Of a stretch of DNA of 64,000 bases, positions 3,330-41,307 are shown piece after piece. The notes under the pieces were generated by a model. It ran no database searches and had not been told where the DNA came from. It was given only the letters and a program-made list of their open reading frames with translations. Position numbers and translations under genes: made by a program. The DNA is from Patescibacteria group bacterium (GTDB taxonomy: Bacteria > Patescibacteriota > JABMPQ01 > JAQVVF01). The stretch is from the NCBI GenBank assembly GCA_041662665.1, contig JBAZSC010000002.1, forward strand, positions 165,234-229,233, read 5' to 3'. Every line of letters begins with the position of its first letter. The stretch's first letter is position 1.

Positions 3330-5021
3330 ATGAACAATAAATTTATTCCAAAATTAAAAATTATTCCGCTAGGCGGATTAGAAGAAATAGGTCGAAATAT
3401 GACCTTAATTGAATATGCAAGAGACATCATCATCATTGATATGGGCTTGCAATTCCCAGAAGAAAACATGCCTGGAATTGATTATATCATTCCAAACATC
3501 GCCTATTTGAAAGGCAAAGAAAATTATATTAGAGGCGTTATTATTACTCATGGTCATTTTGACCATATCGGCGCTATCCCTCACATCATGGATCGCATTG
3601 GCAACCCAACTATTTTTACTGCCAAATTAACAAGGGCAATGATTGAGAAACGCCAGGAAGAATTTGATAAAAAAGAAAAATTATCAATTTATACAATTTC
3701 AGAACAAGACCAAATTCAGCTTGGCCAATTTAAAGTTGAATTTTTTAAAGTCAATCACAACATTCCAGATGGCTATGGAGTAATCGTCCACTCGCCTGTC
3801 GGTACGATCATTCATACTGGCGATTTTAAATTTGATCCAACACCAGTTGGAGACATGCCAGCAAATAAAGAAAAATTAGCCAAAATTGGAAAACAAGGAG
3901 TTCTCGCATTAATGTCAGATAGCACTGGTGCTGAAAATTCAGGTCATTCCATTTCTGAAAAAACGATTATGGAAACATTAAACAAAATTATTTCTGAAGC
4001 AAAAGGCAGAATCATTTTAGCTACTTTTTCATCACTTATTACTCGTATTCAACAAGTTATTTTCATTGCTGAAAAATTAGGCAAAAAAGTTGCAATCGAA
4101 GGTTTTTCTATGAAAACAAATGTTGAAATCTGCAAAAAGCTAGGCTATTTAAAAACTGGCAAGAAAATTCTCGTCAGTACAAAACAAGCTTTGAAATTAC
4201 CAAAAGATAAAATAATTATTTTATGCACTGGTGCTCAAGGTGAAGAAGCAGCTGTTCTAATGCGTATTGCCAATCAAGATCACAAAGAAATAGAAATCGA
4301 AAAAGGAGATTCTGTTATTTTTTCATCATCAGTAATTCCAGGAAATGAAAGAAGTGTTCAAAGATTAAAAGATAATTTGACTAGATTAGGTGCTGATATT
4401 TTTCATTACAAAATGATGGATGTCCATTCCAGCGGTCATGGTTTTATTGATGATCTAACAGAAATGATTACCTTAACCAAACCAAAATATTTTATTCCAG
4501 TTCATGGAAATCATTTCTTATTAAAATTACATGGCGATATTGCAAGAAACACAAATATCGTCAAAGATCCAAATATCTTTGTTTGCGACAATGGCCAAAT
4601 CATGGAATATCAAAAACAAGGCGAAACAGTTGTCGGCGAATTAACAAAACGAAAAGTTCCAGCAGGACATGTTATGGTTGATGGACTTGGCGTCGGCGAT
4701 GTTTCAAATGTTGTTTTAAGAGATCGTCAAGCTATGGCAGAAGATGGCATGTTCGTGATAATCTTAACTATGGATGGAAATACTGGAAAATTAGTCAGCG
4801 ATCCAGATATCATCTCTCGTGGCTTTGTCTTTATGAAAGAATCAAAAAGATTAATTGGCCAGACCAAAGAAAGAATCAAAAAAATCTTAATTGATCATGA
4901 TCCAAAGACTTCATCAAATGATACTTATATCAGAAATAAAGTCCGCGATCAAATTGGTCAATTCTTATTTACCAGAACTCAAAGAAGACCAATGATTCTT
5001 CCAGTCATCATCGAAGTTTAA
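3330..5021 (+). CDS. rnj: Ribonuclease J (metallo-beta-lactamase/beta-CASP RNase)
   Basis: The product has the HxHxDH-type motif ITHGHFDHIGAIP, the N-terminal motif IIPLGGLEEIGRNM, and a 563-aa length typical of RNase J. Confidence 0.85.
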   Translation: MNNKFIPKLKIIPLGGLEEIGRNMTLIEYARDIIIIDMGLQFPEENMPGIDYIIPNIAYLKGKENYIRGVIITHGHFDHIGAIPHIMDRIGNPTIFTAKLTRAMIEKRQEEFDKKEKLSIYTISEQDQIQLGQFKVEFFKVNHNIPDGYGVIVHSPVGTIIHTGDFKFDPTPVGDMPANKEKLAKIGKQGVLALMSDSTGAENSGHSISEKTIMETLNKIISEAKGRIILATFSSLITRIQQVIFIAEKLGKKVAIEGFSMKTNVEICKKLGYLKTGKKILVSTKQALKLPKDKIIILCTGAQGEEAAVLMRIANQDHKEIEIEKGDSVIFSSSVIPGNERSVQRLKDNLTRLGADIFHYKMMDVHSSGHGFIDDLTEMITLTKPKYFIPVHGNHFLLKLHGDIARNTNIVKDPNIFVCDNGQIMEYQKQGETVVGELTKRKVPAGHVMVDGLGVGDVSNVVLRDRQAMAEDGMFVIILTMDGNTGKLVSDPDIISRGFVFMKESKRLIGQTKERIKKILIDHDPKTSSNDTYIRNKVRDQIGQFLFTRTQRRPMILPVIIEV

Positions 5022-5091: not shown

Positions 5092-5520
5092 ATGTTTTTA
5101 CACAAAGAGTTAAGTTGGAAAATTATTGGTATTTGTATGAAAATTCAAAATGAATATGGTTCAAATCATAATGAAAGAATTTATCATTCATTACTAATAG
5201 AGCAATTTACTCTTCAAAAAATCAATTTTTTATCCAAACCCAAAATTCCAGTTTTATCTAAACAAACAGGCAAAAAAATTGGCCTATATGAACCTGATTT
5301 TCTCATCGAAAAATTAATAATCTTAGAAATCAAAGCCAAACCTTTTAATTTTAAAAAAGATGAAACTCAATTACAAGAATATCTGAATACAACGCCTTAT
5401 GAAATTGGTTATTTAGTAAATTTTGGTTTTCAAAATAAATTATATTTCAAAAGAATTATCTGTACCAATAATCTCAAAAATTTCCTAAGCCTTCCTAAAA
5501 AATTATATGCGTCTCAATAA
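5092..5520 (+). CDS. GxxExxY family protein (PD-(D/E)XK-like)
   Basis: The N-terminus GICMKIQNEYGSNHNERIYHSLL matches the GxxExxY signature. The gene is flanked by inverted arrays of the ATCTGTG repeat (5023-5067 and 5533-5582). Confidence 0.6.
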   Translation: MFLHKELSWKIIGICMKIQNEYGSNHNERIYHSLLIEQFTLQKINFLSKPKIPVLSKQTGKKIGLYEPDFLIEKLIILEIKAKPFNFKKDETQLQEYLNTTPYEIGYLVNFGFQNKLYFKRIICTNNLKNFLSLPKKLYASQ

Positions 5521-6871: not shown

Positions 6872-8725
6872 CTAGCCTAATATTTCAAATCTCTCTCCAC
6901 CAATAGAAATTTTTTCTGCTCTCAAAACAAAATCTTCCAAAATTTCATGCACTAACTTATCACATTTCTCTTTTATCTCTTGATATTCTTCATCAGATTT
7001 ATTAATGCCAACTTCCATTCCACAAGCTGCATAAAATTTTATTTTGGGTTCAGTTCCAGATGGTCTAACAACTACTCTGATTGTCTTTTCTTTATTTAAA
7101 TAAAATATTAATGCATTATCTGGAAAACCAATATATTTTCCAACAACTTTATTAGTTTTTGGATCAATAAATTTTTTTTCTAATTGATCTAAAACAGTAA
7201 ACACTTCTAATCCAGAAACTTTAGTTGGCAATTTCGCTCTAAATTTATCCATTATTTTTTTCATTTTATCCATTCCATCCATACCCTTGTAAAAAACAGC
7301 TTGCAACAATTCGCGATAATAACCATATTTTTTCTTTATAATTTCTAATTGTTGATACAAAGTCTTCCCTTCTTTTTTTAACAAACCAGCATATTCACAA
7401 ATTAATAATGCTGCAATTGCACCATCTTTATCTCTCGCATAATCTCCATACAAATATCCATGGCTTTCTTCAGCCCCAAATAAAAATTTATTGCCTTTTA
7501 ATCTTGTATCAATTGCATTGCCAATATATTTAAAACCAACTGGCAAATCTGTTATAACTTTACAACCATTATCTTCGGCAATTTTTGTCAGCAAGTCAGT
7601 AGTTACAACAGTTTTAATCATCATTGTTTTTTTCAAATCTGTTTTTTTACTCAACATTCTTGTTATATAATCCAAAAGCAAAACTCCAATTTGATTGCCA
7701 TTCAAAAATATATATTTTTCTTTTTTTATTGTTTCTGGACTAACAACGCCAATTCTATCAGCATCAGGATCAGCAGCAACCAACACATCAACCTTATTTT
7801 TTTTAGCCTGTTTTGTCCCAAGATCTAAAGAAATTGGAACTTCAGGATTTGGAATTTGTTTTGCAACACTTTTAAAATCTGGATCAAAAGGCATTTGGCT
7901 TTTTACAGTTTCAACTTTTTTGAAACCAACATTTTTCAAAACTGGCAAAAAAGAAGTACTCGCACAACCATTCAAAGGCGTAAATAAAATATGAACGTCT
8001 CGATAATTACCTAATGACAATTTACTTACAGTATCAACAAAAGCTTGATCAATATCTTTACCTAAAATTTTAATCTTTCCAGATTCTTTTGCTTTATTAA
8101 AATCAATTGTTTTTATTTTTTTAACAGCCATGACTTTATTAATAATATTTTTGTCATGAGGAGGAACAATTTGACCGCCATTATCAAAATATACTTTAAT
8201 TCCATTATCAGAAGGAGGATTATGGCTTGCACTAATCATTGCTCCACCGACTGCTTTCATTTTCCTAATTGTAAAAGATATCTGCGGAGTTGATCTAACA
8301 CCCTCATAAAAATATACTTTAAAATTATTTCCAGCAAAAACTGAAGCTGCTGTCTTTGCAAACAATTCAGAATTATGACGAACATCATAAGTCACTACAA
8401 TTCCTTTTTTTAACGCTTTATTCCCAAAAAATTTAATTAGATAATCAGCAAAACCTTGTGCAGATTCAGAAATTGTTCGAACATTAATTCTATTTGATCC
8501 AACTCCCATCATTCCCCTTCTTCCTCCAGTTCCAAAAGGAATAACCTGAAAAAAAGCGTTATTCAAATCATCAACTTTTTCATTATTAATCATCTCAATA
8601 ATTTCATCCCAAAATTTTTCACATTCATCACTATTCAACCAAATTTTTATATTTTTAACAGCCGAATCCACCAAACCTTTTTTCTTTAAACTAAGGAGTT
8701 TAGCATTTATTTCATTTATTTTCAT
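6872..8725 (-). CDS. Phosphoglucomutase/phosphomannomutase (alpha-D-phosphohexomutase family)
   Basis: The active-site serine loop ISASHNPPSDNGIKV is present, and the 617-aa length is compatible with PgcA-type enzymes. Confidence 0.85.
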   Translation of the reverse strand: MKINEINAKLLSLKKKGLVDSAVKNIKIWLNSDECEKFWDEIIEMINNEKVDDLNNAFFQVIPFGTGGRRGMMGVGSNRINVRTISESAQGFADYLIKFFGNKALKKGIVVTYDVRHNSELFAKTAASVFAGNNFKVYFYEGVRSTPQISFTIRKMKAVGGAMISASHNPPSDNGIKVYFDNGGQIVPPHDKNIINKVMAVKKIKTIDFNKAKESGKIKILGKDIDQAFVDTVSKLSLGNYRDVHILFTPLNGCASTSFLPVLKNVGFKKVETVKSQMPFDPDFKSVAKQIPNPEVPISLDLGTKQAKKNKVDVLVAADPDADRIGVVSPETIKKEKYIFLNGNQIGVLLLDYITRMLSKKTDLKKTMMIKTVVTTDLLTKIAEDNGCKVITDLPVGFKYIGNAIDTRLKGNKFLFGAEESHGYLYGDYARDKDGAIAALLICEYAGLLKKEGKTLYQQLEIIKKKYGYYRELLQAVFYKGMDGMDKMKKIMDKFRAKLPTKVSGLEVFTVLDQLEKKFIDPKTNKVVGKYIGFPDNALIFYLNKEKTIRVVVRPSGTEPKIKFYAACGMEVGINKSDEEYQEIKEKCDKLVHEILEDFVLRAEKISIGGERFEILG

Positions 8726-9883: not shown

Positions 9884-10543
9884 TTAGTCAATTATGTCTT
9901 CTTCTAAAATTTTATCTAATTTTTTATCCAAATCAATTTCTTTTGATTCTTTCTTTTTCAAAGCTGGTTTTTCTTCCTTGTCCGCCGAAGCTTTAGCGAA
10001 GGCGGATTCTTCCTCTTTAACGTCAACAGGTTTTTCTTCCTTTTCTTTTTCTTCACCTTCAATCTTTTCTTCCTTGTCCGCCGGTTTGTCCACTGAAACT
10101 TTAGTGGAGGTGGAAGCTTTAGCGAAGGCGGATTTCTTTTCAACTTTTTCAGTTTTTTCTTCTTTCACTTCTTCTTTTGTTTCACCTTCACCTTCAACTT
10201 TTTCCTTATGTTCCTTGACTGCCGAAGCTTCAGCGGAGGCAGTAGCTTCTAATTTAACGTCTTTTTCTTGCTTTGTTACTAATATTCTGACGACATCCAT
10301 TTCATCAGCAACTTGATATCTAATCTTTTTAATTTTAGATGGATCAGCTTCAATCTTTGCAATAAAATAATATCCTTGGCTAAAATGTTTAATTTCATAA
10401 GCCAAATCTTTCATTCCCAAAAAATTTGATTCCAAAATTTTTGCATCAAACTTTGCTAAAATCTTTTCTAATTCTTGAGCCTTTTTTTCTGCTTGTTCAT
10501 CAGTCATTTTAGGAGACAAGAACATTGATAATTCGTACTTCAT
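9884..10543 (-). CDS. rpsF: 30S ribosomal protein S6 with a long Lys/Glu-rich C-terminal extension
   Basis: The N-terminal roughly 95 aa (MKYELSMFLSP...LAYEIKH..GYY...VVRILV) fit S6. The extension of about 120 aa contains three in-frame copies of the palindromic element encoding SAFAKAS-type peptides. The plus-strand ORFs 9894..10316 and 9958..10143 are shadows of this gene. Confidence 0.8.
   Translation of the reverse strand: MKYELSMFLSPKMTDEQAEKKAQELEKILAKFDAKILESNFLGMKDLAYEIKHFSQGYYFIAKIEADPSKIKKIRYQVADEMDVVRILVTKQEKDVKLEATASAEASAVKEHKEKVEGEGETKEEVKEEKTEKVEKKSAFAKASTSTKVSVDKPADKEEKIEGEEKEKEEKPVDVKEEESAFAKASADKEEKPALKKKESKEIDLDKKLDKILEEDIID
9981..10006. repeat. Palindromic element copy (TCCGCC-GAAGCTTTAGCGAAG-GCGGA) in frame in rpsF
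   Basis: Exact 26-mer also at 38264-38289; variants at 10077-10132, 10218-10241, 19057-19082 and 40655-40684. Confidence 0.7.
10077..10132. repeat. Nested palindromic element: outer TCCGCC...GCGGA interrupted by inner TCCACTGAAACTTTAGTGGA
   Basis: The sequence is tccgccggtttgTCCACTgaaactttAGTGGAggtggaagctttagcgaaggcgga. Confidence 0.6.
10218..10241. repeat. Palindromic element variant CTGCC-GAAGCTTCAGCGGAG-GCAG
   Basis: It encodes TASAEASAV in the rpsF tail. Confidence 0.55.
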
Positions 10544-10671
10544 AATGTAGTAAATTAAATCCTCCTTCGTCCTGCTGGACTACGGCGGATGCTAAAATTT
10601 GTATTTCTTATCTTATCACAAAAATCTGAATAATGCAAGGAAATTCGGTATTTTTTATTTTAGCGATAATT

Positions 10672-11236: not shown

Positions 11237-12295
11237 ATGAAAATCGGTATCGTTGGTCTTCCAAACGTTGGCAAGTCAACACTTTTCAACGCTCTGACCA
11301 AAAAACAAGTTGACGCTTCAAATTATCCTTTTTGTACAATCGACCCAAATGTCGGTATTGTTAGCGTACCTGATGAAAGAATAGATCAACTAGTAAAAAT
11401 TGATCATCCTGCAAAAATCGTACCTGCAGTTGTAGAATTTGTTGATATTGCTGGTCTTGTTCGAGGTGCTCATAAAGGTGAAGGTCTTGGCAACAAATTT
11501 TTAACTCACATTAAAGAAGTTGACGCTATTGTCCATGTTCTAAGAAATTTTTCTGACAAAAATGTTACTCATGTTCATGGAAAAATCGACCCCAAAGAAG
11601 ATGCCGATACAGTTGAATTAGAATTGATTTTAGCTGATCTTGATCTTGTTTCAAAATTATTTGAACAAGCAAATAGAAATTCCAAATCAGGCGATAAAGA
11701 AATGATTGCCAGAGCATCAGCATTAGAAAAAATTAAATTAGCATTAGAAAAAAATGAGCTTGCAAGAAAAGTCACTTTAGAAAAAGATGAAAAAGATTCA
11801 ATCAGAGATGTTCAACTTTTAACAACCAAACCAATTCTGTATGTTTTAAATATTGATGAAAATGAAATTGGCAAAGAAATTAATTGTCCAAAACAACCTT
11901 GTATTCCAATTGCCGCTAAAATTGAATCAGAATTAGTTCAGTTATCAGCCGAAGAAGTTAAAGAATATTTACAAGAATATAATCTAAAAGAAACAAGCTT
12001 GAATAAATTTATCAAAGCATCATATGATCTTTTAGGTTTAATCACTTTTTTCACTTCTGGCATTACCGAAACTCATGCCTGGACAATCAAAAATGGTAGC
12101 AATGCACAACAAGCTGCTGGCAGAATCCATACTGATTTTTATAATAAATTTATTCGAGCTGAAATTATTTCGTTTGACGATTATGTATCTTCAGGCGGAG
12201 AATCAAAAGCCAAAGAAAAAGGCAAAATGAGAGTTGAAGGCAAAGACTATATTATCAAGGATGGCGATGTCGCCTATTTCAGAATTGGTCAGTAA
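11237..12295 (+). CDS. ychF: Ribosome-binding ATPase YchF (Obg-family GTPase)
   Basis: The G1 motif GIVGLPNVGKSTLFNALT, a coiled insert and a C-terminal TGS-like domain are present. Confidence 0.9.
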   Translation: MKIGIVGLPNVGKSTLFNALTKKQVDASNYPFCTIDPNVGIVSVPDERIDQLVKIDHPAKIVPAVVEFVDIAGLVRGAHKGEGLGNKFLTHIKEVDAIVHVLRNFSDKNVTHVHGKIDPKEDADTVELELILADLDLVSKLFEQANRNSKSGDKEMIARASALEKIKLALEKNELARKVTLEKDEKDSIRDVQLLTTKPILYVLNIDENEIGKEINCPKQPCIPIAAKIESELVQLSAEEVKEYLQEYNLKETSLNKFIKASYDLLGLITFFTSGITETHAWTIKNGSNAQQAAGRIHTDFYNKFIRAEIISFDDYVSSGGESKAKEKGKMRVEGKDYIIKDGDVAYFRIGQ

Positions 12296-38214: not shown

Positions 38215-38472
38215 TTATTTTTTCCAGAATTCCCACCATTTCTTTTGTATTTTTTCTTCTTTATCCGCCGAAGCTTTAGCGAAGGCGGACTCTCTCATCT
38301 TTTCTGCAACGTCTTCTTGTTCGTCTGGCCTTAGATTAAATTTGCTTTCTTCGTTCATTTCATTATGTTGCTTATCAATTGTTTTCTCTTGCATCTTGTT
38401 TGCATAACCAGAATCACGCGCATCTTCTCTCTTCTTTTCAACACGATCAAATGGATTTTGTTGGTCTACCAT
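38215..38472 (-). CDS. Small charged hypothetical protein carrying an in-frame palindromic element (SAFAKASADKEEK)
   Basis: The 85-aa ORF contains the 26-nt element at 38264-38289. Its coding status is uncertain. Confidence 0.35.
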   Translation of the reverse strand: MVDQQNPFDRVEKKREDARDSGYANKMQEKTIDKQHNEMNEESKFNLRPDEQEDVAEKMRESAFAKASADKEEKIQKKWWEFWKK

Positions 38473-38490: not shown

Positions 38491-40329
38491 TTAAATAGTG
38501 CTGATCGCAAACTTATTCTTTTGCCATCTAAAATTATTAATCCAAATTCTAAACTTTTTTTCTTTTTTTAAATATACTGCTGGCATAGTCTGCCATTGAT
38601 TAGTATTATTATTATAAAATTTTAATTTCAAATCTTTTTTCTTTAACCCATGCAATAATCTATTTCTAAATTTAAAAACCATTTTAATTTTAAATTTTTT
38701 ATCACTTTTTATCTTGTTTAAATTTGATTCTATTTTCCAATAGCCTTTTAATGTTTTTGATTTATTCAAACCACTCGGTTTTTTTGCTATTCTCGCTATT
38801 TTAAACCAATAATCAGTCGGTTTGTTAGGTATTTTTTTAAACTTAAAATCCAATAATTTTCCTTCTAAAGCAATATTTTTCAATCCTTTTCTTAAATCAA
38901 ATTTCTTATCATTATAAACGATATTGTAATTTTCTGTCCTGACGATTTCTTGATTACCAAGACTATCAACTGAAAAAAATTTTAATGTTTTGTCATTAAA
39001 AATTCTAAACGCTGAAGAATATTTTGTTGAACTAATGGTCGGTGTTGAACCGTCAAGAGTATAATAAATTCCTGAAATGCCATTTGTATCTGTAGCAGTT
39101 AAAGTAATTTTTTTATATTTTTTATAATCTCCGCCTACAGGCACTGCTACAGTTTTCGGCTCCAAAAAATTTTCTGAAATTTTATTCCACAAATCAGCAT
39201 ATCCATTGTCATATCCCAAAGCCCAAATTCCAATACCTAACAAAGCATTATCATTCACCAAATCATATTTATATTGCAAGCTTTCTTCATCCTCATACCA
39301 AGTCTGCCTAAAACTTCCATATTTATAGTAAGGAGTTTTTGAATCATTATCCCAAATTCGTGAATAATTTAAAATTGCCAATCTATTTTCAGCATAAGTT
39401 TTTGCTTCACCAGTCCCAATCGTATTAGCTGGAACTGTATCAGCACTAACTTCCCAATCATAACCATAATAAGGCACACCTAAAATCAATTTTTGTCGAT
39501 TATTATTTGTTAAACTTAAATAAGTTTCTAATGTACTCACAACATTATAATTACCCCAAGTACTACTATCATCATATGGAGCAATTGGACCTGCAGTTGA
39601 TCCGCTTTGCCAATGGTAATCATAAGCCATAATCATCAATCCATCAGAATTTAAAGCTAGCGCATTTTCATCAAAAGCATCAGACCAATCAACAGCCGGC
39701 ACATCAATTGCAATATGATAAGAAGAATTGGAAATTTTAAAAGTATTATTCAAATCAGTGATAAAAGTCGTCAAATTTGTTTTCATCGCAGAATCGACAT
39801 TTTCAAAATCAATATTTATTCCGTCAGCAGATGTGCTTTTAACTTCATTCAATAAATTATTAATTAAGTTATTTCTATAAGTTGCGTTTGATAATAAAGT
39901 TGATAAATCAGATGAACTAAAATTTTGTGCTGTTAAAACAACTTTCACTCCATTTTGATGAGCCAAATTTAATAAAGTATTATTTGGCCAGCCATGTTTA
40001 TCTCCCAAACTCCCATCGCTATTAACTTCAATTGAAAAATATGCCAAATGCGTAATCAAATTCCATTGAAAATTTGCATAAGTATCACCCATCCAATAAG
40101 GAAAAAAACCATAAACAACTTTAGAAACATCTGGCGATAAACTAACATTGCCATTGCTGACAATTCCAATATTACTTTCTTTAATTCTATAATCCTTATA
40201 TTTTTCAAGTTCAGTTTGATGAATACTCTTATCATCCGACAAAACATTAAGTGAAGATAAATTAGCAAAAACAAAATTTCCAGAAAATAGAATTAAACAA
40301 ATAATTAAAATATAAAATATTTTTTTCAT
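38491..40329 (-). CDS. Secreted GH18-family (chitinase-like) protein with a CHB_HEX_C-like domain and the shared Lys-rich C-terminal module
   Basis: A signal peptide is followed by the GH18 core (VVYGFFPYW...DGINIDFEN, MAYDYHW), the segment YYTLDGSTPT, and the shared C-terminus (GYWKIESNLNK...). Confidence 0.7.
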   Translation of the reverse strand: MKKIFYILIICLILFSGNFVFANLSSLNVLSDDKSIHQTELEKYKDYRIKESNIGIVSNGNVSLSPDVSKVVYGFFPYWMGDTYANFQWNLITHLAYFSIEVNSDGSLGDKHGWPNNTLLNLAHQNGVKVVLTAQNFSSSDLSTLLSNATYRNNLINNLLNEVKSTSADGINIDFENVDSAMKTNLTTFITDLNNTFKISNSSYHIAIDVPAVDWSDAFDENALALNSDGLMIMAYDYHWQSGSTAGPIAPYDDSSTWGNYNVVSTLETYLSLTNNNRQKLILGVPYYGYDWEVSADTVPANTIGTGEAKTYAENRLAILNYSRIWDNDSKTPYYKYGSFRQTWYEDEESLQYKYDLVNDNALLGIGIWALGYDNGYADLWNKISENFLEPKTVAVPVGGDYKKYKKITLTATDTNGISGIYYTLDGSTPTISSTKYSSAFRIFNDKTLKFFSVDSLGNQEIVRTENYNIVYNDKKFDLRKGLKNIALEGKLLDFKFKKIPNKPTDYWFKIARIAKKPSGLNKSKTLKGYWKIESNLNKIKSDKKFKIKMVFKFRNRLLHGLKKKDLKLKFYNNNTNQWQTMPAVYLKKEKKFRIWINNFRWQKNKFAISTI

Positions 40330-40332
40330 TAA

Positions 40333-41307
40333 TTATTTTAGAGAATCCAAATAATATTTTAAAATTTTAGTCCAAATTTCTAATAATTTTTCTTTCTCTT
40401 CAAGAGGAATATCTGATCCGCCTATATCTGCCAAAATTGTCCCAACAGATCTTCCCAACATTCCTAAATCAAACCCTTTTTTATCAGTAAGTTCATTCTT
40501 AACAAAAATATTTTTCCAATCCAAACTTTCTTTCAATGCCAAATCATAATTTATAATCTTTCTTGCATCTTGAATTATTGACCAAACTATAAAAGGTCCT
40601 TCGGCAAATTCAGGTTGCCAACAACAATGAGCAAAATCAGTCAAATAATACTTGTCCGCCGAAGTCCCACAGGACGTAGGCGGATTTACCTTAAAAATTT
40701 CCTTTGGCTTAAAATGTCCATGTGTCCAGATAAATTTATATCCATTGCCATCTTTTTTCAAAACATCAATCGCTTTTTCACACAAATCATAACTCTCTTG
40801 TTTTAACCAACTTTTTTCTTTTGCCAATTTTTTCCATTTTGATATATTTCTCAACGCCCAATCGCCAACTGTCTTATCTTTAAAAATTTTTAATTCAGGA
40901 TTTTTGGGCCAGATCTTTTTATATTCGATAAAAACTTTAAAAAATTCTTCTCTGTTTTCAACTTTCGGCATGCCCTCAAAAATATGTTTGCTTGTATCAA
41001 TGTATTCTTCAATCAGCCAGCCGGAATGATCATCATACATTTTATAATTATATAATTTCGGAGCAGTTAAAATTTCACTTTTATTATTTTTTAAAAATTC
41101 TTTCAAATTCAAAGGTTCATACACTTCTCTTGGATCTTTCCACATTTTCAAAATCGCTTTTTTATTTTCAAAATTTCCTTTAAAAATAATATTTCTTGTT
41201 TTGCCTTTTCTATAATAGGTACTTGAATAAATTTCTTTTTCGGAAACAAAGCGAGCCTCTAAAATTATCCTTTTTATTTCCGCATCGCTTAAAAAATCAA
41301 ATTTCAT
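40333..41307 (-). CDS. Phosphotransferase (APH/choline-kinase-like kinase fold) with a palindromic element inserted near the catalytic loop
   Basis: The motifs HGHFKPKEIF and YYLTDFAH resemble the HGD.hp.N / DFE motifs. The element at 40655-40684 encodes NPPTSCGTSADK between them. Confidence 0.55.
   Translation of the reverse strand: MKFDFLSDAEIKRIILEARFVSEKEIYSSTYYRKGKTRNIIFKGNFENKKAILKMWKDPREVYEPLNLKEFLKNNKSEILTAPKLYNYKMYDDHSGWLIEEYIDTSKHIFEGMPKVENREEFFKVFIEYKKIWPKNPELKIFKDKTVGDWALRNISKWKKLAKEKSWLKQESYDLCEKAIDVLKKDGNGYKFIWTHGHFKPKEIFKVNPPTSCGTSADKYYLTDFAHCCWQPEFAEGPFIVWSIIQDARKIINYDLALKESLDWKNIFVKNELTDKKGFDLGMLGRSVGTILADIGGSDIPLEEKEKLLEIWTKILKYYLDSLK
40655..40684. repeat. Palindromic element variant TCCGCC-GAAGTCCCACAGGACGTAG-GCGGA in frame in the kinase-like gene
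   Basis: It has the same 6-bp arms and the GAAG...AG loop ends, but the loop core differs. Confidence 0.55.

Follow-up and report, generated by a model that had tools for sequence, protein, structure and literature searches.

Here, we report that a GC-rich palindrome lying in frame within a kinase-like gene of a Patescibacteria genome is probably a copy of a short, non-autonomous hairpin repeat, similar to repetitive extragenic palindromes (REPs) and Rickettsia palindromic elements (RPEs), which is tolerated in a permissive loop of the host protein. The window, the whole 64-kb stretch of contig JBAZSC010000002.1 analysed here and the frame for all positions given without a locus name, carries the element at 40655..40684 on the minus strand, inside the gene of a 324-aa protein with a predicted APH/choline-kinase fold (40333..41307, minus strand). 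The kinase copy is a lineage-specific, in-frame gain of 27 nt at the tip of a β-hairpin. Other copies of the family were gained as discrete units of about 30–35 nt with no visible target-site duplication, and they landed in untranslated regions (UTRs), in coding regions, in other copies of the element and, in another genome, in the RNase P RNA. Their stems are held paired by compensatory changes, and several subfamilies coexist.

On the plus strand, positions 40655-40684 read TCCGCCGAAGTCCCACAGGACGTAGGCGGA, divided as TCCGCC-GAA-GTCC-CACA-GGAC-GTA-GGCGGA, in which stems of 6 bp (outer) and 4 bp (inner) are separated by a symmetric 3x3 internal loop and the inner stem is capped by a tetraloop. 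The sense form, TCCGCC TAC GTCC TGTG GGAC TTC GGCGGA, was assigned by reading, folding and family flanks to the subtype that we call B-type, and is followed in the sense direction by the CAAG tail of the family at 40651-40654. Within the open reading frame (ORF), the sense strand of the region reads AAT CCG CCT ACG TCC TGT GGG ACT TCG GCG GAC AAG and encodes N208-PPTSCGTSA-D218-K219, between HGHFKPKE (H196-E203) and DFAH (D224-H227). The folding energy of the hairpin is -17.6 kcal/mol for RNA (z = -4.6) and -10.4 kcal/mol for DNA (z = -4.7), and in neither case did any of 200 shuffled sequences fold equally well. The window contains three matches to CCGCC-N10-30-GGCGG where 0.01 would be expected, and the palindrome in the kinase gene is real and not a product of chance. 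The composition sets it apart as well: the 27 inserted bases have 70% GC versus 28% across the remaining gene (about 31% in the whole window), GC at third codon positions is 67% versus 23%, and the codons of the insert are mostly rare for the genome, with usages of 4-12% within their synonymous sets.

The closest homologues of the kinase-like protein are P0002 (65% identical, at the syntenic locus L001) and P0003 (55% identical, at L003), and both are without exactly 27 nt (9 aa) at this site. In the codon-level comparison with these two loci, the net insertion spans 40657..40683 (minus strand) and corresponds to codons P209-A217 (PPTSCGTSA); P0002 reads AAA ATA AAT|AAT AAA TAT and P0003 reads AAA ATT AAA|AAT AAA TAT at the site, the element being absent from each. 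The linker, measured in 84 homologues from the catalytic-loop Glu to the residue before the DFAH motif, has 10-12 residues in 82 of them, 19 in the window protein and 38 in a protein named P0054. A DFG-like Asp is expected about 12 residues past a catalytic loop, and the spacing in the insert-free homologues is 10-12.

The host ORF is intact and retains every invariant residue of its family. A hypothetical protein with the same sequence as its product is recorded from a Patescibacteria metagenome-assembled genome (MAG), and 86 further homologues (87 Patescibacteria in all) are nearly all unannotated, a few having a precomputed match to PF01636 (APH). A Pfam scan of the window protein gave no match, PF01636 included, and a search of PDB sequences with the family profile gave no significant match; therefore, the fold was assigned from a predicted structure. 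The AlphaFold2 model, built on 21 sequences, has a mean predicted local distance difference test score (pLDDT) of 93.2 and a predicted template-modelling score of 0.89. Its best Foldseek match is APH(4)-Ia (E = 2.9e-8, TM 0.60-0.65), followed by APH(9)-Ia, aminopropanol kinase and choline kinase LicA, with 6ef6 among these matches. The modelled protein is bilobal and protein-kinase-like, and on this prediction it has an APH/choline-kinase-like fold. The equivalent of the catalytic loop is H196-G-H-F-K-P-K-E203 (40699..40722, minus strand), in which H196, G197, H198, K200 and E203 are invariant, and the equivalent of DFG is D224-F-A-H227 (40627..40638, minus strand) with invariant D224, F225 and H227. 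The HGH..K..E pattern is invariant in the 84 homologues and places His for the catalytic Asp and Glu for the Asn, so that the protein departs from the Brenner motif H-x-D-x4-N. Judged from these residues, the HGHxKxxE family may consist of pseudokinases or may perform a different chemistry, and this loop is a more interesting feature of the protein than the insert itself.

The sole segment of the model with a pLDDT below 50 comprises residues 211-215, at the tip of the β-hairpin formed by strands E204-207 and E219-222. In the model of the insert-free P0002, a 2-residue turn joins strands E204-207 and E210-213, and the order of the other helices and strands is the same. The insert is thus predicted to convert a 2-residue β-turn into a disordered 11-residue loop while the remaining fold is unchanged, and the peptide PPTSCGTSA is probably without function in the kinase, for which the insert is probably neutral. 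The distant homologue P0054 (L179 10001-11074) has an unrelated 78-nt perfect-stem palindrome (CCCCGCACCTATCA...TGATAGGTGCGGGG, -37 kcal/mol) in frame in the same β-turn, where it adds 26 residues, and therefore the position tolerates insertions repeatedly.

What the initial annotation had proposed for this site is supported in its four parts (an insertion, an APH/choline-kinase-like host, a permissive surface turn and a mobile hairpin family), with minor corrections. The sequence and coordinates that it gave for an in-frame palindromic element are exact, and the APH/choline-kinase-like host and the permissive surface loop that it recognised from motifs are supported by the Foldseek matches and by the low-pLDDT tip. 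It had suggested comparing predicted structures with and without the insert and aligning homologues: the window protein and P0002 share their secondary structure outside the turn, and the alignment finds the insert in neither P0002 nor P0003. A non-palindromic version of the insert, which it had named as evidence to the contrary, occurs in none of the homologues compared. The element does lie between the catalytic loop and the DFG-like motif, but the loop, which had been taken for the HGD type, is HGH..K..E and not HGD..N, and the insert, taken to be 12 aa long, is a net gain of nine.

The kinase copy is one of 7 hairpin units that occupy 6 sites in the window, five of them coding, as found by a scan for GC-rich islands together with direct reading. 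The consensus of the family on the pyrimidine strand is T-CCGCC-T(T/A)C-(variable G...C hairpin)-T(T/A)C-GGCGG-A-CAAG; the hairpins are 26-30 nt long and fold as RNA with -11 to -17.6 kcal/mol. The A-type has the sense sequence TCCGCC TTC GC TAAA GC TTC GGCGGA, and its unit is exactly 30 nt, which equals 10 sense codons (SAFAKASADK). Two identical, intact A-type copies, both within a stretch encoding SAFAKASADK, are found at 9981..10006 (minus strand; site 3 in the tail of ribosomal protein S6, where the copy itself encodes SAFAKASAD) and at 38264..38289 (minus strand), in frame in an 85-aa ORF at 38215..38472 (ESAFAKASADKEEK). The inner stem is GTCC/GGAC in the B-type copy of the kinase and GC/GC in the A-type copies of S6 and the 85-aa ORF, while the outer stem, the T(T/A)C loops and the A-CAAG tail are common to both. 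The proposed link between the kinase copy and the A-type draws on these shared parts, plus the presence of both subtypes next to each other in other genomes. The earlier claim that the same family had entered a second, unrelated protein stands with regard to outer stem, loops and tail, but the kinase copy forms a separate subtype. Between the 85-aa ORF and the kinase gene lies an ORF for a 612-aa secreted protein (38491-40329), which the L001 locus, syntenic in other respects, does not have; the two genomes thus differ here by a 1.85-kb indel.

Recent gains are most readily seen at rpsF, the gene for ribosomal protein S6 (9884..10543, minus strand; PF01250, E = 3.2e-18), whose Lys/Glu-rich C-terminal extension hosts three element sites. 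Alignment of this locus with the relatives L183 (87% nt identity) and L184 (85%) revealed three clean window-only insertions of 35, 30 and 30 nt, none with a visible target-site duplication. The 35-nt insertion, clean with respect to both relatives, is a B-like copy in the rpsF 5'UTR (10560..10594, plus strand; hairpin 10560-10589), with the sequence TCCTCC TTC GTCC TGCT GGAC TAC GGCGGA and a TGCTA tail. Site 1 of the S6 tail (10215..10244, minus strand) is a 30-nt in-frame variant, ACTGCC TCC GC TGAA GC TTC GGCAGT CAA, in which a change from C-G to T-A leaves the stem paired; this copy is absent from all S6 orthologues. Site 2 (10077..10132, minus strand) is an older A-type copy common to P0208 and P0209, which in the window is split by a nested 30-nt copy (10085-10114, minus strand; TCCACC TCC AC TAAA GT TTC AGTGGA CAAA), while L183 and L184 carry it uninterrupted. 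The nested copy differs from its host copy at 7 of 30 positions and therefore is not a local duplication. At site 3, the relatives have AT-rich sequence of similar length or a deletion, the same-length stretch in L183 matching 16 of 30 positions. Across the S6 orthologues, the number of sites falls from three in the window to one in P0208 and P0209 and none in P0210-P0214.

Nesting is not confined to S6. The L001 orthologue of the 85-aa ORF carries two copies, one nested in the other, where the window has one; here a 30-nt unit (TCCACC..GGTGGA-CAAG) stands after GCT and before TCGGCGGA of the older copy. The nested copies thus occupy the same relative position, after GCT and before YCGGCGGA, in two host copies from two genomes, and this coincidence in independent hosts, as read from the aligned sequences, argues for targeted insertion over random duplication.

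Outside the window, we found a B-type copy in an unrelated protein, the activase of anaerobic ribonucleotide reductase (radical-SAM), at L129, where it reads CPFCHNPELVYND-PPTSCGTLAD-KV in the same orientation and frame as the kinase copy; the 77%-identical homologue at L182 reads FDNKNKTQITEEE, and there the element is absent. The activase of L181 (GCA_964574655.1, the assembly that also contains L001) has a copy with the compensatory stem CCTCC/GGAGG. L181 and L182 are the closest activase pair, with 84% nt identity, yet L181 and L129 are filled and L182 is empty. The filled allele of L181 equals the empty allele in length, which suggests a compensating deletion or a replacement and not a pure insertion. 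The mobility that the initial annotation had proposed is supported by the filled and empty states at the three rpsF-locus sites, by the patchy presence of copies in S6 and by the contrast between the L129 and L182 activases.

The family is also widespread. A scan of species genomes with a GC-rich pattern of 18 specified bases returned mostly chance matches from high-GC genomes, and about ten low-GC matches among those listed are informative, with the same non-complementary T(T/A)C loops and flanks. The low-GC carriers are Fulvivirga, Saprospiraceae and Chitinophagales (Bacteroidota), Ignavibacteriales, Sedimentisphaerales, an Armatimonadota MAG and a Buchananbacteria MAG; named genomes with the core come from at least five phyla, Bacteroidota, Ignavibacteriales, Planctomycetota and Armatimonadota included. 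A stricter pattern retrieved 55 metagenome loci with host GC of 0.29-0.68, all flanked by T-CCGCC ... GGCGG-A(C/T)A(A/G), and the ends of every one of the 66 oriented copies are T-CCGCC and GGCGG-A-CAAG. Genomes from 31% to 64% GC have the identical A-type 24-mer, and a near-identical variant with a TCC loop is found in the viral contig L186 (67% GC). IMG/VR yielded four A-type copies and no B-type copy, and BLAST searches of plasmids and phages with the consensus gave partial, chance-level matches only.

Most copies in other genomes are intergenic, and both orientations relative to transcription occur, while the coding copies, with few exceptions, have a common orientation and the ..S-A-D-K frame; a copy in the opposite orientation is found in an M23/FG-GAP ORF at L145. 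An A-type-like copy, CCGCC GTC GCTAAAGC TAT GGCGG ACAAG, lies near the end of rpoB in the Patescibacteria locus L179 (position 4083). Inverted dimers or adjacent opposite copies are present at L189, L187, L160/L131, L140 and L128, whereas the window copies are nested or tandem instead. Pairing in the stems is preserved by compensatory double changes in at least five instances, compared with three or four changes on one side only; the window contributes the pairs CTGCC/GGCAG, TCCAC/GTGGA and, in the inner stem, AC/GT. Hairpins of other kinds were seen at two of these loci. L179 has a second GC-rich family, CCTGCC..CCGGCAAGGCAGG (7556-7587, 7883-7913, 8429-8470 and 11847-11884), hosted by the C-terminal region of rpoC, by ftsK and by a neighbouring gene, and L003 has a perfect 34-nt GC palindrome at 139-172 (GGGACTCGGTCCCGGGTACCCGGGACCGAGTCCC), in frame in the gene upstream of the P0003 homologue and of a different family from the kinase hairpin.

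A further group of copies is associated with stable RNA genes. In L131 and L160, an A-type and a B-type copy stand side by side inside the RNase P RNA gene (RF00010, 110 bits); this RNA (L131 418-905, equal to about 1-300 of L160) has 488 nt compared with 367 positions in the model, and in L131 the hairpins lie back to back within a 137-nt expansion of one terminal loop. The cultured Fulvivirga kasyanovii (L028) has two copies, at 4628-4657 and 4744-4771, directly downstream of its tmRNA gene, of which one lies 4 nt past the gene and one has a compensatory CCACC/GGTGG stem. Copies lie beside tRNAs in L137 and L140 and in the rRNA operons of L128 and L141. The two hairpins in the rRNA-operon spacer of L128 (about 100-200) are found inside an apparent duplicated 5' fragment of tRNA-Ile (GGGCCCATAGCTCAGC|hairpins|TTGGTTAGA...), and a group I intron (RF00028) is located near them.

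We propose that the copies spread as hairpins of single-stranded DNA, which an HUH/Y1-type transposase of the REP-associated tyrosine transposase (RAYT) or IS200/IS605 kind would mobilise in trans, or otherwise by an equivalent hairpin-templated copy process. Those that survive would be frame-preserving insertions in tolerant loops or tails, a filter that would explain the shared orientation and ..S-A-D-K frame of the coding copies, and AT-biased mutation may later erode old copies to ordinary low-complexity coding sequence. An all-against-all BLAST of ORFs from the copy-bearing loci revealed no gene that recurs beside the copies.

Several observations weigh against the interpretation of the kinase palindrome as a REP/RPE-like mobile repeat. 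The net gains of 27 nt in the kinase and 18 nt in the activase contrast with the 35-nt unit of the B-type UTR copy, and therefore an accompanying deletion or a different boundary is needed; in the alignment, at 65% protein identity, the kinase junctions are not placeable to the base. Pfam gave no Y1_Tnp match on ten small ORFs within the window, which covers 64 kb of a 258-kb contig. REPs as described are normally lineage-specific, whereas the core of this family is identical across at least five distant phyla, which could indicate a conserved cellular function, and several copies adjoin stable RNA genes (tmRNA, tRNA, rRNA operon, RNase P). Unlike REPs, moreover, the family has no terminal GTAG or CGTC tag in the 66 oriented copies, these tetranucleotides being present only in the internal loop of some variants.

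Part of this evidence would fit a hairpin that is chiefly a functional RNA or DNA motif kept by selection, for instance a site of binding or processing by a conserved host factor, or a stabiliser of 3' ends, in which case the coding copies would be regulatory (pausing, mRNA stability) and not selfish. The identity of the core across phyla, the compensatory changes in the stems, the enrichment beside the tmRNA, tRNA, rRNA and RNase P genes of L028, L137/L140, L128/L141 and L131, and the single copy in the rpsF 5'UTR would all be expected of such a motif. We nevertheless consider it unlikely as the principal explanation: copies occur in both orientations relative to transcription, close relatives do without them at the same sites of the same conserved genes, self-nesting and inverted dimers characterise repeats rather than regulatory sites, and no Rfam family was matched. 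Function and mobility are compatible and not mutually exclusive.

Specific RNA candidates were considered individually and set aside. A known RNA family found no match in Rfam, either for the window and 22 loci at gathering thresholds or for the element regions at E <= 10. In favour of a mimic of the S6:S18-binding leader or of 16S rRNA, one copy lies upstream of rpsF and the A-type has GCGAAGGCGG in common with 16S rRNA. Close relatives, however, have no UTR copy at all, the mRNA of the coding copies contains the opposite strand, and we estimate the 10-mer match to be near chance. Judged from structure alone, a bulge-helix-bulge intron was rejected on the 3-nt segments, which stand opposite each other and are not offset by 4 bp, a K-turn on the symmetric 3x3 internal loop, and a hammerhead on the absence of the CUGAUGA/GAAA core.

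An origin without any transposase, through template switching on hairpins during replication or through short-patch gene conversion, would make the kinase insert a templated scar. It accords with the lack of a transposase among the ten small ORFs and with the imprecise boundaries of the coding copies (27 and 18 nt net versus the 35-nt unit), and S6 site 3 and the L181 activase also replace sequence of similar length instead of adding to it. The three rpsF-locus insertions are clean and unit-sized (30-35 nt), however, the nested copy is too different from its host copy to be derived from it locally, with 7 of 30 positions changed, and comparison with L001 and L003 shows no flanking homology at the kinase site that could seed conversion. 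This origin appears somewhat less likely than a functional motif.

Selection on the protein offers a much poorer account. If the nine residues were an adaptive, lineage-specific extension of a kinase loop and the palindrome incidental, an intact ORF would be natural, and so would the expansion of the same loop in P0054. But near-identical nucleotides, including synonymous positions and rare GC-rich codons, recur in the unrelated activase and in non-coding DNA, the extension is predicted to be disordered, and the other 82 homologues dispense with it, and we regard adaptation as very improbable. An assembly or sequencing artefact is more improbable still: hairpins can bring local misassembly and nothing more specific speaks for it, while the reading frame is kept, the identical protein is present in NCBI, JGI, Logan and ENA assemblies, and the independent JGI contig L167 matches the window 100% over 2709 nt.

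We therefore return to the reading as a REP/RPE-like repeat tolerated in a permissive loop. The family appears to be undescribed so far; a literature search found no report with these sequences and none on such repeats in Patescibacteria. A bolder version, which we put forward tentatively and hold to be somewhat less probable than its negation, is that the kinase insert is one event of an undescribed, cross-phylum superfamily of ~30-nt hairpins that is currently active in Patescibacteria. Under this proposal, frame-compatible units would hit proteins, UTRs, RNase P RNA and, site-specifically, their own 3' loop, the elements would be a significant source of loop and tail expansions in the proteins of these organisms, and an unnamed enzyme or a conserved host process would move them, which would explain the same core in phyla of differing GC.

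In-frame palindromic insertion into essential genes has so far been investigated chiefly in Rickettsia and in a small number of bacteria rich in REPs, and the present locus extends it to Patescibacteria with a much smaller unit. The before-and-after comparisons at rpsF, the nesting and the insertion in RNase P RNA offer a mechanism for the disordered loops and the Lys/Glu/Ala-rich tails of reduced, AT-rich genomes. The defined sequence family can be used to seek the responsible enzyme, and Fulvivirga kasyanovii could be an experimental handle on the family. For annotation, the hairpins account for odd GC-rich, rare-codon segments and for spurious small ORFs.

Two other features of the window may be recorded. 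Positions 5092-5520 encode a PD-(D/E)XK nuclease (PDDEXK_3 family, E = 5.8e-23), for which no connection with the hairpins was found. The GC skew is strongly and continuously negative from about 6 kb on and the long ORFs are nearly all on the minus strand; therefore, the window lies mostly within one arm of the replichore.

Among known systems, REPs share most with the family: both are imperfect GC-rich palindromes of 20-40 bp that fold into hairpins, are dispersed, comprise several subfamilies per genome and have a short unpaired tail. As with BIMEs and REPINs, inverted dimers or clusters occur (L189, L187 and L160), and copies are sometimes found in ORFs. Translated REPs inside ORFs are documented, among them RPE-4 and RPE-6 of Rickettsia conorii, which are REP-sized CGTC elements, and many in Opitutus terrae, and the described REP superfamilies are defined by an unpaired terminal GTAG or CGTC tag (PMC3733652). 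The present family differs in its architecture, in which a symmetric 3x3 loop, T(T/A)C, separates the stem from a variable inner hairpin. It differs further in its location in the window, where five of the six sites are coding, while REPs are mostly extragenic and downstream of ORFs. Some REPs are mobilised by a RAYT; no RAYT gene was seen among the ten small window ORFs.

In-frame insertions of RPEs are the classical case (PMC10969869). The family resembles the RPEs of Rickettsia (RPE-1 to RPE-10) as a palindromic repeat of a reduced, AT-rich genome that enters unrelated genes in frame at tolerant sites (kinase, S6, 85-aa ORF, activase and the rpoB tail), but classical RPEs are about 100-150 bp long and restricted to Rickettsia, whereas the units here are 26-35 nt, add 9-10 residues and are not limited to one genus. 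Ogata and colleagues reportedly observed in 2000 that RPEs lie in frame in unrelated genes, where they add a surface peptide and leave the host protein intact. The GC clusters of yeast mitochondria are likewise short, mobile, GC-rich palindromes of an AT-rich genome, with an in-frame insertion in var1, but they belong to a eukaryotic organelle, have another sequence and in some families show target duplication. Miniature inverted-repeat transposable elements such as Correia, ERIC and Nezha are also non-autonomous and can fuse in frame with host ORFs, yet they have 50-500 bp, terminal inverted repeats and target-site duplications, in contrast to units of 30-35 nt with three clean junctions that show no duplication. 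The "peel and paste" transposition of IS200/IS605 elements recalls the family in the recognition of a subterminal imperfect hairpin, in the lack of target duplication and in insertion in or beside hairpins; the analogy is confined to mechanism. No TnpA was found among the ten small window ORFs, and the sequence 5' of the insertions shows no conserved target of 4-5 nt. Taken together, the family behaves like REPs and RPEs but is no member of a described family.

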